A stretch of DNA of 4,069 nucleotides from Methanobacterium sp. (GTDB lineage: Archaea; Methanobacteriota; Methanobacteria; Methanobacteriales; Methanobacteriaceae): assembly GCA_003166335.1 (NCBI GenBank), contig PMWA01000079.1, positions 1-4,069 on the forward strand, in the 5' to 3' direction. Below, in pieces: positions 1-3,000 of the stretch. Position 1 is the stretch's first letter. Every line of letters begins with the position of its first letter. The position numbers are program-made.

Positions 1-3000
1 AGTACAATTAAAGCATTCAATTTAAGTTATTTTATGCCTAGTTGATGGGAGCATGAGGTATAGTTATGGCATCATGGATGAACGGAAGATATTGTTATAC
101 AAACCACATTTATTCTTGAAAGGTAATGACCTATTAATATTCCCTAGTAAAGACTTTCATAAATGGCACGGAGATATAAAAGAGTACATAGACGGATTAT
201 ACCAAATAAACTCCATAAATCTAGAGAAGGGCAAATCCATCAACATAAACGAACTTAATTTGGCTTCAGGTTTACTCACTAACATCACAGATGAACTGGA
301 ACATTTATTCAACGCCAAAAGAGTATCCGATTCCTCTTATCAGTATGTCTCTACTCTCGATGAGGAATACACAAAACGGAGAAGACAATGGTACACTAGC
401 GATATGATGAAATGTGATATGAGAATCCCCGTTAAACCATCCATTAATCCATGGATTCAGCACCAGAATATGATGGAAATAATAGACCATGCTACGGGGG
501 AGTTCATCATGGCTCGGAAAAAGAAGTCAAAGAAACTCACAGACCCCTCAAATTAAAGAAAGGCGGATTTAGGTAAGGAATGAATATGTTTAGGAAATAA
601 TCGATTATGGATACTAAAAAATTCGTGCTATTAGACATTGATTACATCACTAAAAACAATGCAGCAGTTATAAGATCATTCGGCAAACTCCTGGGGGAAA
701 ATGAAGGAGGATCGATAATAGCTCTAGATAGGAGCTTCAAACCTTACATGTACGTTCTTCCTTATGATGTTGAGGAATGTATTGCAGAGTTAGGTAGTCT
801 GAATCTTTTGAAGATAGAAAAAGTTATTAAAACTGATTTTGGAGAATCGAAGGAGTTTTTGAAGATTACTTTAAAACATCCACGTGATGTGTCCAAGTTA
901 AGAGAGAAAATATGGGACCTACCATCCGTAAAGGAAGTTAGAGAACATGATATCCCATTTTCCCAGAGATATTTGATTGACAAAGGTTTATTTCCCATGT
1001 CACAAGTAGAAGTGCAGGGAAAAGTATTAAATCGCTCCCATCTCGATAAAACATGCAAAATCGAAATACATAACGAACTTCAACACGTTAAATCCAGTTT
1101 ACCTGAACTTAATATTTTAAGTTTCAAAATCGAAGCCTGCAACCCACATGGTATGCCCAAAGTAAAAGAAGACCCCATTATTATGATTAGTTTCTCTAGT
1201 AACCAAGGCTTCCAAAAAGTATTTTCCACAAAAAAATCATCATCTGATTTTGTAGAGACTGTCCCAACTGAGAAGGAATTATTAAAGAAGTTTATTGAAA
1301 CCATTAAATCCCTAAATCCAGACATAATCACCGGTTACAACTCAGACAAATTTGACTTTCCTTACATTAAAGAAAGAGCTAACCAATTAGGTATATCACT
1401 CAAATTGGGAGTCGATGGATCAAAACTTAAGTTTATAACAGTCCCTAAAAAGGCCGCACTGATTAAGGGGCGTATTCATATTGATCTTTACAGGATTGTG
1501 CGCAAACATCTTCAATTAAATATCCATACACTTCAAAGCGTTTATCAGAAGCTTTTCGATGATGATAAAATCGATATTCCAATGGATCAGATATACACAT
1601 GTTGGAATGATGGTGGTGAAAAAAGAGAGAAACTATTCAGATATTCCCTTGAAGATTCGATTGCTATTACAAAAATCGGAGAGAGAATGTTGCCCATCAG
1701 TATTGAGCTGGCAAGGATTGTAGGACAACCACTATTTGAAATTGTCAGTCGGGGGACCGGAACCCAGGTGAAGTGGTATTTAATCCGAAAATCCCATGAA
1801 TTTGGTCATATTCTTCCAAATGAACCCGGAATATTTGAAAGAAACGTGGTTGGAGGATATGTAGAAGAACCAGTCCCAGGTTTACATGAAAATATTGTTT
1901 ACTTCGATTTCAGGAGTCTTTATCCTAGTATAATAATAGCTAAAAATATTTCTCCGGAAACCCTTTGTAAAGATGGTGATGAAGAAACCTGTCATATTGC
2001 ACCGGAATTTGGATATAAATTCAAAAAAGAACCAATAGGCTTTATTCCCGCAGCCACATCCCAAATTTTAAATGACAGAATACGAATTAAGTCTATGATG
2101 AAAGAATCCACAGATCCCAGTGAAAAACAAATTTTAAACTTCAGACAAGAAGCACGAAAAACACTAATCTCCACAATCTATGGACTGTATAATCATCCCA
2201 AATATCGTTGGTATTGTATAGAGGCTTCAGAGGCGATTACCGCATGGGGAAGGGAATTCCTGAAAAAAACCATGGAAAAATCTGAAGAACATGGTTTTAA
2301 TCCACTATATGCAGATACCGATGGATTCTATGCAACCTACAATGGATCAGACTATAAAGAAATGTAATTATTATTGGAGAAGGAAAAAAAATAAACAAAG
2401 TCGAAGAATTCATTAAATGACATCGATATTAATGACATATATAAAATAAATTTGGGTATTATTTAATTAAATTGGTTGGGGATTAATATTGCAAAAAAAT
2501 TTTCTTAAGAAATTTATAGAAGAAGAAAGATATTTACAGAATCAGCCATTAAAAACTGCAGATTTTATCGAGTTTTGCAAAAAAAGAGGAATAGAAACAG
2601 ATGAAAACGAATTAGAGTTTTTTGAAAAAGAAAGTCTTCTTTATCCAATTATCCGAATTAATAGACCCATTATTGAAGAGGAACGAATTAAATTCATGAT
2701 AGAAGGCAAAACTTATTGGAAACCCGCATTTCAAGGATTACAAAAGGGTGAAACTGAATTAAAAAAAATCAATGTTAAACATTATTCACCTTATGGATTT
2801 AATAAAGAGGATAGAGGACTACTATTAAACTTTCTTGAAGATGGTAATTTATACGATCCTTCAATAAAACCGTTCCAAGAATGGTCTTCTTTTGATAGTG
2901 AACTGTTAAGGAACGGTAGGAATAGGATAATAAGTTTATATTCATCTTTTCAAATTCATTGGCTAGAGATATTGAAAAAAGATTACAAAATTTCAATCAA

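Follow-up and report, generated by a model that had tools for sequence, protein, structure and literature searches.

We consider it likely, though some way from assured, that the extra family-B DNA polymerase gene in the window (the whole stretch of 4069 nucleotides analysed here, from a Methanobacterium species) encodes the catalytic portion of a polymerase that is induced by damage and proofreads poorly, and which would be switched on, bind its partner and act by way of a subunit swap with the ordinary enzyme. Many Methanobacterium-type methanogens have a spare subunit of this kind, to judge from its sequence probably a stress-induced and error-tolerant polymerase. The features on which the argument turns are collected in Table 1.

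An extra catalytic half of the split polymerase

The gene, here called polB1x, specifies the N-terminal, exonuclease, palm and fingers domains of a family-B polymerase (Pfam PF03104 and PF00136; Pfu/Kod-type structure match, E 1e-132), without thumb or PIP box, and it stops where the ordinary large subunit is split. In this two-piece design it agrees with the split PolB (PolB3 group) of Methanobacteriales (Kelman et al., 1999, as cited in the accessible part of PMC4104785), among whose genes it is nested. It departs from them in its exonuclease (the intact Exo I DxE of split PolB large subunits is missing from the window copy), editing hairpin, linker, motif B and uracil pocket, in being an extra copy without a small subunit of its own (two re-fused forms excepted), and in belonging to a conserved, box-bearing cassette; PolB3 genes, according to the same partial text, mostly lack a conserved neighbourhood.

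Table 1. Features of the window and of the adjoining contig C34
Feature	Position	Strand	Remarks
U125 3' end, small cassette gene with PIP-like motif	1..25	+	remainder on contig C34
U167, penultimate cassette gene, paralogue of U125	53..556	+	profile match
Degenerate PIP-like motif VSTLDEEY of U167	347..370	+	alignment; near position of U125 QCYLDAYL
polB1x, extra large subunit of split family-B DNA polymerase	607..2367	+	586 aa
Patch (~codons 81-130) nearer ordinary polB1 than sister copy	847..996	+	DNA identity
Exo I motif FKIE	1123..1134	+	catalytic Asp replaced by Lys (K174, nt 1126-1128), Glu kept
Polymerase motif A DFRSLYPS, intact with steric-gate Tyr	1906..1929	+	Asp and Tyr in 52/52 extra copies
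Motif B region, KTLISTIYG	2158..2193	+	Asn replaced by Ser (S522; Kod N491S equivalent) and clade-wide Gly to Asn
Polymerase motif C YADTDG, intact	2308..2325	+	sequence
OLD-like TOPRIM gene, flanking DNA	2489..4069	+	PF20469
Box of window cassette	C34:1081, ~1.06 kb upstream of window position 1	C34 minus	20.9 and 21.4 bits

An earlier note on this genome had described the reading frame with its altered Exo I and motif B and its intact motifs A and C, and all of this was found again, as were a further intact copy (C124:734-2500; FNIE) 82% identical to that in the window, the canonical copy (C90:1150-2949; FDIE, KRLANSMYG) 63% identical to it, the single locus for the small subunit (PolB2), and three decayed fragments, to which a fourth, small one can be added (C29:2510-2596). 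That the extra PolB1 has no PolB2 of its own was likewise borne out. In an alignment of the three own copies with their 120 best database matches, the Exo I Asp is indeed kept by a minority, now 25 of 123 rather than 28 (97 replaced, one gapped); the motif B residue is Asn in 21 rows, Ser in 100 and Ala in two; and motif C, supposedly kept throughout, has both Asp residues in 122, the remaining row being a fragment. Multiple copies within the genus, put earlier at 11 of 19 genomes, were seen in 10 of 19 as at least two full-length matches listed. Purifying selection on the two intact extra copies was reproduced almost exactly (dN/dS 0.25, against 0.26).

At least two large subunits occur in 49 of 251 genomes. 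In a tree of split large subunits the 52 extra copies, that in the window included, form one clade nested in genus g1, and holding the ordinary copies of family f1 together is rejected (p-AU 5e-8). The extra clade arose once, inside this genus, and then spread to four other genera; the cassette itself would have followed the same course, from a single duplication to passage between genera.

All 52 extra copies retain the Asp residues of motifs A and C, the gate Tyr, and the Gln and Lys of motif B. The Exo I Asp is missing from 39 of them, with Lys in its place in 17. At least one exonuclease carboxylate is lacking in 40/52 extra copies and in 0/51 ordinary ones, so that the proofreading deficiency proposed earlier stands as a prediction for most of the clade; loss of the Asp is a majority trait and not a universal one, as 12/52 keep all four carboxylates. 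The motif B Asn has gone from 37/52, the Gly-to-Asn change is present in 52/52, and the Val of the uracil pocket is replaced in 49/52 and kept in only two. Median dN/dS in the exonuclease domain is 0.19 for extra and 0.05 for ordinary copies, a roughly four-fold relaxation; in the polymerase domain the median for extra copies is 0.10 (that for ordinary copies leaves out the pair L037-L045, where a broken gene gives 0.32), and all 13 extra-copy pairs lie between 0.09 and 0.25.

These residues bear on whether polB1x is simply a dosage back-up that still proofreads. Three of the four exonuclease carboxylates do persist in most extra copies (Exo I Glu 50/52, Exo II Asp 52/52, Exo III Asp 48/52), and the examples in the literature, as far as the accessible texts go, concern the double D141A/E143A change and not a single one. 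We nevertheless regard a plain back-up as very improbable, given the relaxation of the exonuclease domain and the frequency of Lys at the metal-binding Asp. In the two-metal mechanism of the exonuclease the Asp binds metal, which Lys is unlikely to do.

The window copy is peculiar in one short patch (Table 1), where, in windows from codons 81 and 101, DNA identity is 80-81% to the canonical gene on C90 and 71-74% to the sister copy on C124. The patch, to judge from these identities probably a product of gene conversion, restores the uracil-pocket Val and Arg to the window copy (V93 and R97 in Kod numbering).

A cassette of small genes behind a shared box

polB1x is the last gene of a cassette that runs box, [U118], U125, U167, polB1x. 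The window opens within U125, and the rest of U125, with U118 and the box, is carried on the minus strand of contig C34, whose reversed end overlaps the start of the window by 23 bases (the usual length in this assembly, seen in 50 of 72 overlap hits); the U125 reading frame closes across the joint. The downstream TOPRIM gene lies outside the cassette and is flank only; among the other loci fetched, L087 alone has a relative, at a distance of about 4 kb from its polymerase.

U167 is present in 55 of the 251 genomes, comprising all 49 with at least two PolB1 genes and only six of the other 202. Of the 52 extra copies, 44 have U125/U167 no more than 1.5 kb away and three have them at 4-6 kb; for the remaining five, neither was found within the fetched DNA. 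The two small proteins are related to each other (profile match with probability 92, E 6.5e-7), and scans of the small proteins against Pfam, NCBIfam, PHROGs, PADLOC and PDB sequences gave nothing usable (for the U167 family, no Pfam or NCBIfam match and only weak PHROG matches). U125 is predicted to carry a PCNA-binding-like (PIP-like) motif: a relaxed form, with an aromatic or aliphatic last residue, is found in 96 of 123 rows (5.2 when shuffled), and the strict form Q-x-x-[LIM]-x-x-aromatic-aromatic in one. For U167 a pattern taken from the alignment itself is found in 82 of 133 rows (shuffled mean 1.5). Structure models (pLDDT 57 for U167, 65 for U125) have a beta-beta-alpha-beta start followed by two long helices; fold searches with the U125 model in the pdb_via_wide, pdb and viral libraries returned generic helical hairpins only (best Z 7.5, no E below 0.001), and an atlas search with U125 gave no match. 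An AbrB-like N-terminus for U125 is a guess. An epimerase-type identity for U167 was dropped, the atlas matches having low shared features. Complex prediction for PolB1x with U125 and U167 scored 0.44, and 0.54 in a control with the polymerase replaced.

The box, TACTTYTCANNYGCTCT, is found in the 1.5 kb upstream of 44/52 extra copies and 0/51 ordinary ones (many of which had less than 1.5 kb of upstream DNA), and since the training sites were gathered with a cassette-leader pattern, the first of these counts is not fully independent; the eight exceptions are five copies cut by contig ends and three with a box just past 1.5 kb. In all, 205 of the 251 genomes have the box, with 1078 matches against one for a reversed control. 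It stands about 11 nt ahead of an AT-rich, TATA-like stretch, and also heads uvrA, uvrB, nreA, RPA and hjc genes. Outside the cassette, 51 sites were read in 16 genomes; 15 of them head genes of DNA repair or replication (Nre, UvrA, UvrB, RPA, Hjc, TopoVI-B, Cdc6, helicases, a nuclease and an HhH protein), a count made without a formal background, and another 15 head unrelated or unnamed genes. In genome G086 the proportion before repair or replication genes is 7/12. There are also sites at which the box was looked for and not found: before nreA in ten further loci (from nine genomes chosen for few strict matches) and, in the own genome, before the uvrB, Hef-like, XPD-like, radA/radB and Ku genes. 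Like these absences, it counts against our preferred reading that at about 19 loci the polymerase gene points away from the box and is transcribed from a strong TATA of its own. A riboswitch was considered and dropped, there being no Rfam match and only the 17-20 nt box being conserved across target genes.

The company kept by the box and by U125-U167 could be read differently, as that of a damage-induced but accurate repair-synthesis polymerase, whose loss of exonuclease would help it to fill gaps or displace strands during excision repair or during end joining by Ku and ligase. The boxes before uvrA, uvrB and nreA would fit, as would the intact steric gate, the accuracy of exonuclease-free Dpo2 on undamaged DNA (PMC8764526, accessible part) and nine loci of genus g13 in which U125-U167 directly precede Ku and DNA ligase. 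The Ku linkage is, however, limited to that one lineage, Ku has a different spread (67/251 genomes, many of them free of the cassette), and plain gap filling does not call for altered nucleotide and uracil pockets; we therefore think this reading unlikely. A strict partnership with NHEJ is not supported by the distribution of Ku.

It is less likely still that polB1x is a mere passenger of a mobile or repeatedly duplicated, slowly decaying block of which the box marks the left end. The flanks do differ between most cassette loci, similarity between the own copies begins at the box and stops at the polymerase stop codon, several broken copies survive in the own genome, and selection is relaxed relative to ordinary copies. 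Yet the 13 pairs compared all bear the mark of purifying selection, no integrase or transposase is consistently adjacent across the loci (one has an integrase fragment, L047), searches of viral contigs and phage records did not turn up U125, and the box precedes single-copy repair genes in cassette-free genera too, for which reason we reject it as an element end. A virus- or transposon-encoded (casposon-like) PolB was rejected for want of a consistent recombinase and of a conserved right end to the cassette.

Transcription in situ, which the earlier note had read from metatranscriptome contigs, has weak support and is not shown by them: every one of the 30 bins, coding or not, is covered by run X1, while runs X3, X4 and X6 cover 19, 11 and 11 bins inside and outside the cassette, so that with one run covering everything and three patchy they speak neither for induction nor for a single transcript. 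That note's interpretation is partly supported. The context that explains its observation did not figure in it: the cassette with U125-U167, a box of damage type upstream, one origin followed by spread to other genera, re-fused forms and a changed uracil pocket.

A possible subunit swap and its known counterparts

How might a catalytic half without thumb or PIP box be put to use? It is from these absences that we infer recruitment of the cell's small subunit, which is single-copy in 245/248 genomes. In the scheme that we prefer, DNA damage would act through a regulator, most likely a non-initiator Cdc6/Orc1, on the box upstream of the TATA, switching on repair genes together with the operon [U118]-U125-U167-polB1x. 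PolB1x would then draw the small subunit away from its ordinary partner and form with it an alternative holoenzyme in which the polymerase centre is kept, the exonuclease would be disabled or weakened, and the altered editing hairpin, linker, nucleotide pocket and, in most copies, uracil pocket would change its behaviour. Such an enzyme should be able to extend primer ends that are mismatched or damaged, though with more mutations, much as Sulfolobus Dpo2 or eukaryotic Pol zeta does. The small PIP-bearing proteins may occupy PCNA or hand it over during the switch; PIP-like motifs are also found at the C-termini of PolB2 and NreA in the own genome.

An exonuclease-dead family-B catalytic subunit that borrows subunits of the accurate enzyme is known from eukaryotes, where Pol zeta shares subunits with Pol delta. 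There, by comparison, the subunit shared is of another kind: what PolB1x would share is the polymerase's thumb and part of its palm, and the duplicate is recent and passes between genera.

In two members of the extra clade the polymerase continues into a small-subunit half with a PIP box at its end. Their C-terminal halves group with genus-g1 small subunits (92/87), and because an outside position for them is not rejected by the AU test (p 0.13), the case for re-fusion rests on the N-terminal tree. If correct, this would be a case of a split gene rejoining, and the clade as a whole an error-tolerant polymerase newly evolved from a split enzyme through the swap of one subunit.

The fused forms also bear on a decoy or brake, in which a catalytically poor PolB1x and the small PIP proteins would sequester the small subunit and PCNA and so pause synthesis after damage. 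Having their own thumb, they could not sequester one; moreover, the catalytic residues of the polymerase are all invariant and dN/dS is lowest in its polymerase domain. Loss of the near-invariant motif B Asn in so many copies, and the PIP-like motif of U125, are what a decoy would lead one to expect, and so is the drop in DNA synthesis that N491S causes in engineered Kod-RS (PMC9738464, accessible part), a point that also tells against our preferred scheme; even so, a decoy seems quite improbable.

The closest functional model for the cassette, by analogy, is the PolB2/Dpo2 mutasome, made up of PolB2, PPB2/arCOG07300 and an inactive RadA (PMC4104785, PMC11791011, PMC7390963 and PMC8764526, each in part). 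As these texts describe it, the likeness lies in a family-B polymerase predicted from sequence to lack exonuclease, an operon with small helical proteins and a damage-type element. Their ancestry differs, PolB1x being a recent duplicate of split PolB3: an origin in the PolB2 group is excluded by its nesting there and by its 63% identity to the canonical copy, in a tree without PolB2-group sequences. Nor does the cassette contain an inactive RadA (none RadA-like in 60 loci read; a RadB-type gene lies 1-2 kb off on the other strand in four g13 loci), and a separately encoded thumb subunit would be needed. Compared by published description with the three-helix 'MGRT' PPB2/arCOG07300, U125 and U167 have no MGRT, a beta-rich start in their models and a PIP-like motif.

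For the regulation, the counterpart would be the Orc1-2/DDRE damage regulon of Sulfolobus (PMC6061795, PMC5817253, accessible parts). The box equals the Orc1-2 element given in PMC6061795 at 14/20 positions (reached by 75 of 20000 shuffles), is likewise non-palindromic and upstream of BRE/TATA, stands before repair genes and a polymerase predicted to lack exonuclease, and has a conserved site at which the box-led gene faces a second cdc6/orc1 gene (genome G051 lacks both). The differences, so far as those texts allow, are that it comes from a euryarchaeal class, with a one-base shift of the core TTTTC/TTCTC (its consensus does not contain the exact hexamer ANTTTC) and an apparently longer core-TATA spacing, and that its target set is different and varies by genus, with the second Cdc6/Orc1 only a candidate regulator.

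Taken jointly, these comparisons suggest a fuller picture that we hold tentatively and would put at somewhat less than even chances: an SOS-like regulon of Methanobacteria, homologous to Orc1-2/DDRE of Sulfolobus and run by the second Cdc6, would in one lineage have gained a mutator polymerase from the duplicated catalytic half of split PolB, swapping onto the shared thumb, helped onto PCNA by new small PIP proteins, moving between genera and re-fused in one branch, with an Asp loss and N491S that mirror laboratory-evolved XNA polymerases. If so, a regulon that responds to damage through a defined box would be on record for the first time in a methanogen class, and would account for lesion tolerance in a class with almost no Y-family polymerase (found in 2/251 genomes, and not in that studied here). 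The question raised in the accessible part of PMC6061795, whether Orc1-type damage regulation occurs outside Sulfolobales, would become directly testable, cultured relatives making the tests feasible. We found no earlier report of the spare polymerase cassette in the literature; the supplements of PMC4104785 and PMC7544198 might list paralogues.

The laboratory parallel is with the engineered TNA polymerases Kod-RS and RSGA (accessible parts of PMC9738464 and PMC12830623), which share the loss of the Exo I Asp and the N491S equivalent; an aligned engineered TNA polymerase chain has the same motif B Ser as polB1x. The window protein, by contrast, keeps A485 and the Exo I Glu, and is natural and under purifying selection. 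Family-B enzymes that are mesophilic, lack the exonuclease and have N491S by nature may be of use in modified-nucleotide synthesis. By database name, cultured relatives with the extra polymerase include M. formicicum, M. oryzae and M. spitsbergense.

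The extra large subunit and its cassette

The gene polB1x encodes a 586-residue large subunit of a family-B polymerase in which Exo I reads FKIE and motif B KTLISTIYG, the Exo II and III residues and motifs A and C being intact. The genome also holds a second extra copy on contig C124 (82% identity) and the ordinary copy on C90 (63%), together with four fragments and a single small-subunit gene. The claim of an earlier note that the extra copies have lost the Exo I Asp and altered motif B was borne out with slightly different counts (25/123 retain the Asp and 21/123 the motif B Asn, among the three own copies and the 120 best database matches, of which those with names are Methanobacterium), and the two intact extra copies are, as it also held, under purifying selection (dN/dS 0.25).

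U167, the small gene before polB1x, has a counterpart before the C124 copy, there behind two further small genes, U125 and U118. Through a 23-base overlap with the window start, contig C34 brings in U118 and the remainder of U125, in frame, so that the unit reads box-U118-U125-U167-polB1x, the box being a promoter element considered below. U125 is present in 66 of the 251 genomes of the class and U167 in 55; with up to five candidates scored per genome, U167 occurs in 49/49 genomes having at least two matches and in 6/202 others, counts that are not independent, as the genomes are kin. The polymerase gene is either last in its operon or head-to-head with U125. At nine loci of genus g13 the U125-U167 pair instead follows a variant box and immediately precedes Ku and an ATP-dependent ligase, and in two g13 genomes the polymerase starts with U125-like sequence, which points to deletion. 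Of the 248 genomes with a match, 245 have a single small subunit; the other three are G017, with fused forms, G016, with broken pieces after a cassette, and G235, with two partial matches.

U125 and U167 are paralogues, and domain- and family-database scans assigned them to no known family. With 93 clusters at 50% identity the U125 family is a small one, and searches of viral contigs and phage records found none of it. The U125 structure model has a short beta-rich start followed by two long helices. A Q-x-x-L-x-x-Y-L motif, present in 96/123 rows (5.2 when shuffled; the strict two-aromatic form in 1/123), resembles the PIP boxes ending the genome's own small subunit and NreA, and on this likeness U125 may bind PCNA; U167 and U118 carry degenerate forms.

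Some minor features of these loci (see the table) may be mentioned here. Many cassette copies in this genome are truncated or internally deleted, most starting at the box. Two contig ends with GC-rich-looking reading frames, unlike the remaining genome, are possibly chimeric assembly. PADLOC gave no match for the TOPRIM gene. Genus g3 has the cassette in one of 19 genomes. DUF488 fragments lie near the polymerase in some g13 loci. In genome G002, stops interrupt the ordinary polB1 and several neighbours, possibly through sequencing errors; its extra copy is intact.

Locations of features in the window, in other contigs (C) of the genome and in fetched loci (L)
Feature	Location	Remark
U167	window 53-556	
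polB1x	window 607-2367	
Probable conversion patch from ordinary polB1	window 847-996	about codons 81-130
OLD-like TOPRIM gene	window 2489-4069	runs on into C69 via 23-base overlap
Truncated or deleted cassette copies	C17:13913-15080, C33:2236-3157, C113:1-311, C124:9100-10403, C51:299-823, C29:2482-2601, C115:3531-3671	
GC-rich-looking contig ends	C51:1-298, C29:3080-3618	
Box-led gene facing cdc6	C81:7530-7792 (L095)	
Same, further loci	L102, L105, L112, L113, L118, L126, L130, L150, L157, L158, L200-L202	
Unsplit polymerases, G017	L043:8527-10920, L044:8913-11330	inside cassette
Broken unsplit form, G016	L047:8085-10407	inside cassette
Spore-photoproduct-lyase-like radical SAM gene with partner, near cassettes	L043:11207-13433, L069:9864-12018	two genomes; partner in L069 is a GMT-like wHTH
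U125-U167 upstream of Ku and ligase	L054-L060, L062, L065	g13
DUF488 gene downstream of polB1x	L031-L034	four g1 genomes
Interrupted ordinary polB1	L045 (G002:C11)	
Box-led DUF763	L120, L137, L143, L153	four genomes
Box-led YdjM; GyrI-like	L139; L147	
Box-led U125-related proteins ending QCLxGL	L111, L116, L117, L145, L151	
Box-led proteins ending VQTTLExF	L110, L152	56-61 residues

Residue changes, selection and descent

When 52 extra large subunits were compared with 51 others, the Exo I Asp was lost from 39 (none of the others), at least one exonuclease carboxylate from 40 (none) and the motif B Asn from 37 (none), and all 52 had Asn for Gly after motif B (none). At the uracil pocket the Val has given way to other residues in 49 (one gap) against one, and the Arg in 38 against none; in most extra rows the linker is six residues shorter and the editing hairpin altered. 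All four carboxylates survive in 12 extra rows. The reading of PolB1x as a back-up enzyme that still proofreads is very improbable. Every extra row keeps the Asp of motifs A and C, the gate Tyr and the Gln and Lys of motif B. Median dN/dS of the exonuclease domain is 0.19 in extra copies (13 pairs) and 0.05 in ordinary ones (10 pairs), and of the polymerase domain 0.10 (13 pairs) and 0.05 (nine pairs, one broken pair left out). The polymerase centre has thus been kept, and proofreading was relaxed once the duplicate had joined the cassette. Of the rival readings, we consider a passenger in decay and a decoy both unlikely, and equally so.

According to the accessible part of PMC9738464, D141A/E143A silences the exonuclease, V93Q lowers uracil stalling, and N491S belongs to Kod-RS, an enzyme with a preference for TNA substrates and a lower output of DNA. 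The motif B Ser of polB1x is also seen in the aligned TNA polymerase chain.

In a 103-row tree the extra copies fall into a single clade (SH-aLRT 99), nested next to ordinary copies from this genome's own g1 sub-lineage; residues 200-578 gave the same outcome, and constraining the ordinary copies of family f1 together was rejected (p-AU 5e-8; 34 rows). The clade comprises 15 rows from g1 (this genome included), 16 from g13, 13 from g34, seven from g19 and one from g33; it thus had a single origin and has moved from genus to genus. Such a history could be biased by conversion with the ordinary copy: a patch from ordinary polB1, probably a conversion tract, restores the uracil-pocket residues of polB1x, and the first 180 codons of polB1x and the C124 copy are much less similar than the remainder. 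PolB is otherwise split throughout the class, but two clade members in G017 are unsplit (about 800 residues, with a terminal PIP box). The N-terminal part of both sits deep within the extra clade, in favour of re-fusion, and the broken G016 form is probably a re-fusion too; the C-terminal halves of the two G017 proteins fall with small subunits of g1, the alternative not being decisively rejected (p-AU 0.13).

The box and a possible damage-induced polymerase

Cassette leaders share TTACTTYTCA-NN-YGCTCTC, in most loci about 60-90 nt upstream of the first gene. A weight matrix built from other genomes found 12 sites of at least 19 bits in this genome (0-1 in five shuffles), six before cassette copies; among the rest are sites before a small gene that faces cdc6, before a Cas4-like nuclease and before nreA. 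In exact form the pattern is present in 205/251 genomes (1078 matches; one for the reversed control). Context was read at 58 sites in 16 genomes, seven of them cassettes; of the remaining 51, Pfam scans covered 41 and 10 were judged by eye. These 51 sites lead genes carrying DNA repair or replication domains (15, the helicases among which we take to be Hef, Hel308 and XPD), DUF763 (4), a small gene (10, facing cdc6 in nine), small proteins with PIP-like motifs (7, five being U125 relatives) and other or unnamed genes (15). A matrix trained on these 51 placed a box within 1.5 kb upstream of 44/52 extra polymerases and 0/51 others; of the eight remaining, five stand at contig ends and three have a box just past 1.5 kb.

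An AT-rich stretch begins about 11 nt downstream of the box, which puts the box in the position of an activator site. The consensus agrees at 14/20 positions with the damage-promoter 20-mer activated by Orc1-2 (PMC6061795), an agreement reached by 75 of 20000 shuffles; that source lists dpo2 among the targets of Orc1-2 and treats such control outside Sulfolobales as an open question. An Orc1-2-like regulator may act here too. Two results count against a damage regulon: the box was absent before nreA in 10/10 further loci (from genomes picked for few hits), and in this genome before most core repair genes.

We consider it rather probable that the cassette provides a damage-induced, proofreading-poor polymerase, in which PolB1x would pair with the single small subunit in place of the ordinary large one, and the small proteins would act at PCNA. 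By analogy it would work in the manner of Sulfolobus Dpo2, which is described in the consulted portions of PMC7390963 and PMC8764526 as damage-inducible, without exonuclease, extending mismatches and causing targeted mutagenesis. Y-family polymerases occur in 2/251 genomes, and none was found in this one. An accurate enzyme of repair synthesis would suit the repair genes that share the box, but seems doubtful.

By ancestry polB1x belongs with the split PolB3 large subunits, but it lacks their intact Exo I. Nor does it belong to the PolB2 mutasome (PolB2, PPB2 and inactive RadA, in the available text of PMC11791011), although by analogy its system probably works in a similar way. The accessible text of PMC4104785 treats the split gene of Methanobacteriales and makes no mention of paralogues; 'methanobacter' does not occur in the main text of PMC7544198, and a literature search, mostly without subscription papers and supplements, returned no report of paralogues or a damage box in the class.

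Eukaryotic Pol zeta and Pol delta offer a parallel case. Other box-led genes deserve notice. The most conserved site precedes a gene of roughly 60 residues with a hydrophobic tail, facing the 3' end of a second cdc6, possibly a feedback arrangement. DUF763, box-led in several genomes, is suggested by this to have a DNA-damage role; in E. coli, YdjM and GyrI belong to the SOS genes. Two families of small PIP-like proteins are also box-led. Regulon size varies widely, as in the g5 and g14 genomes; a single genome of g5, a genus without the cassette, may hold as many as 28 exact boxes.
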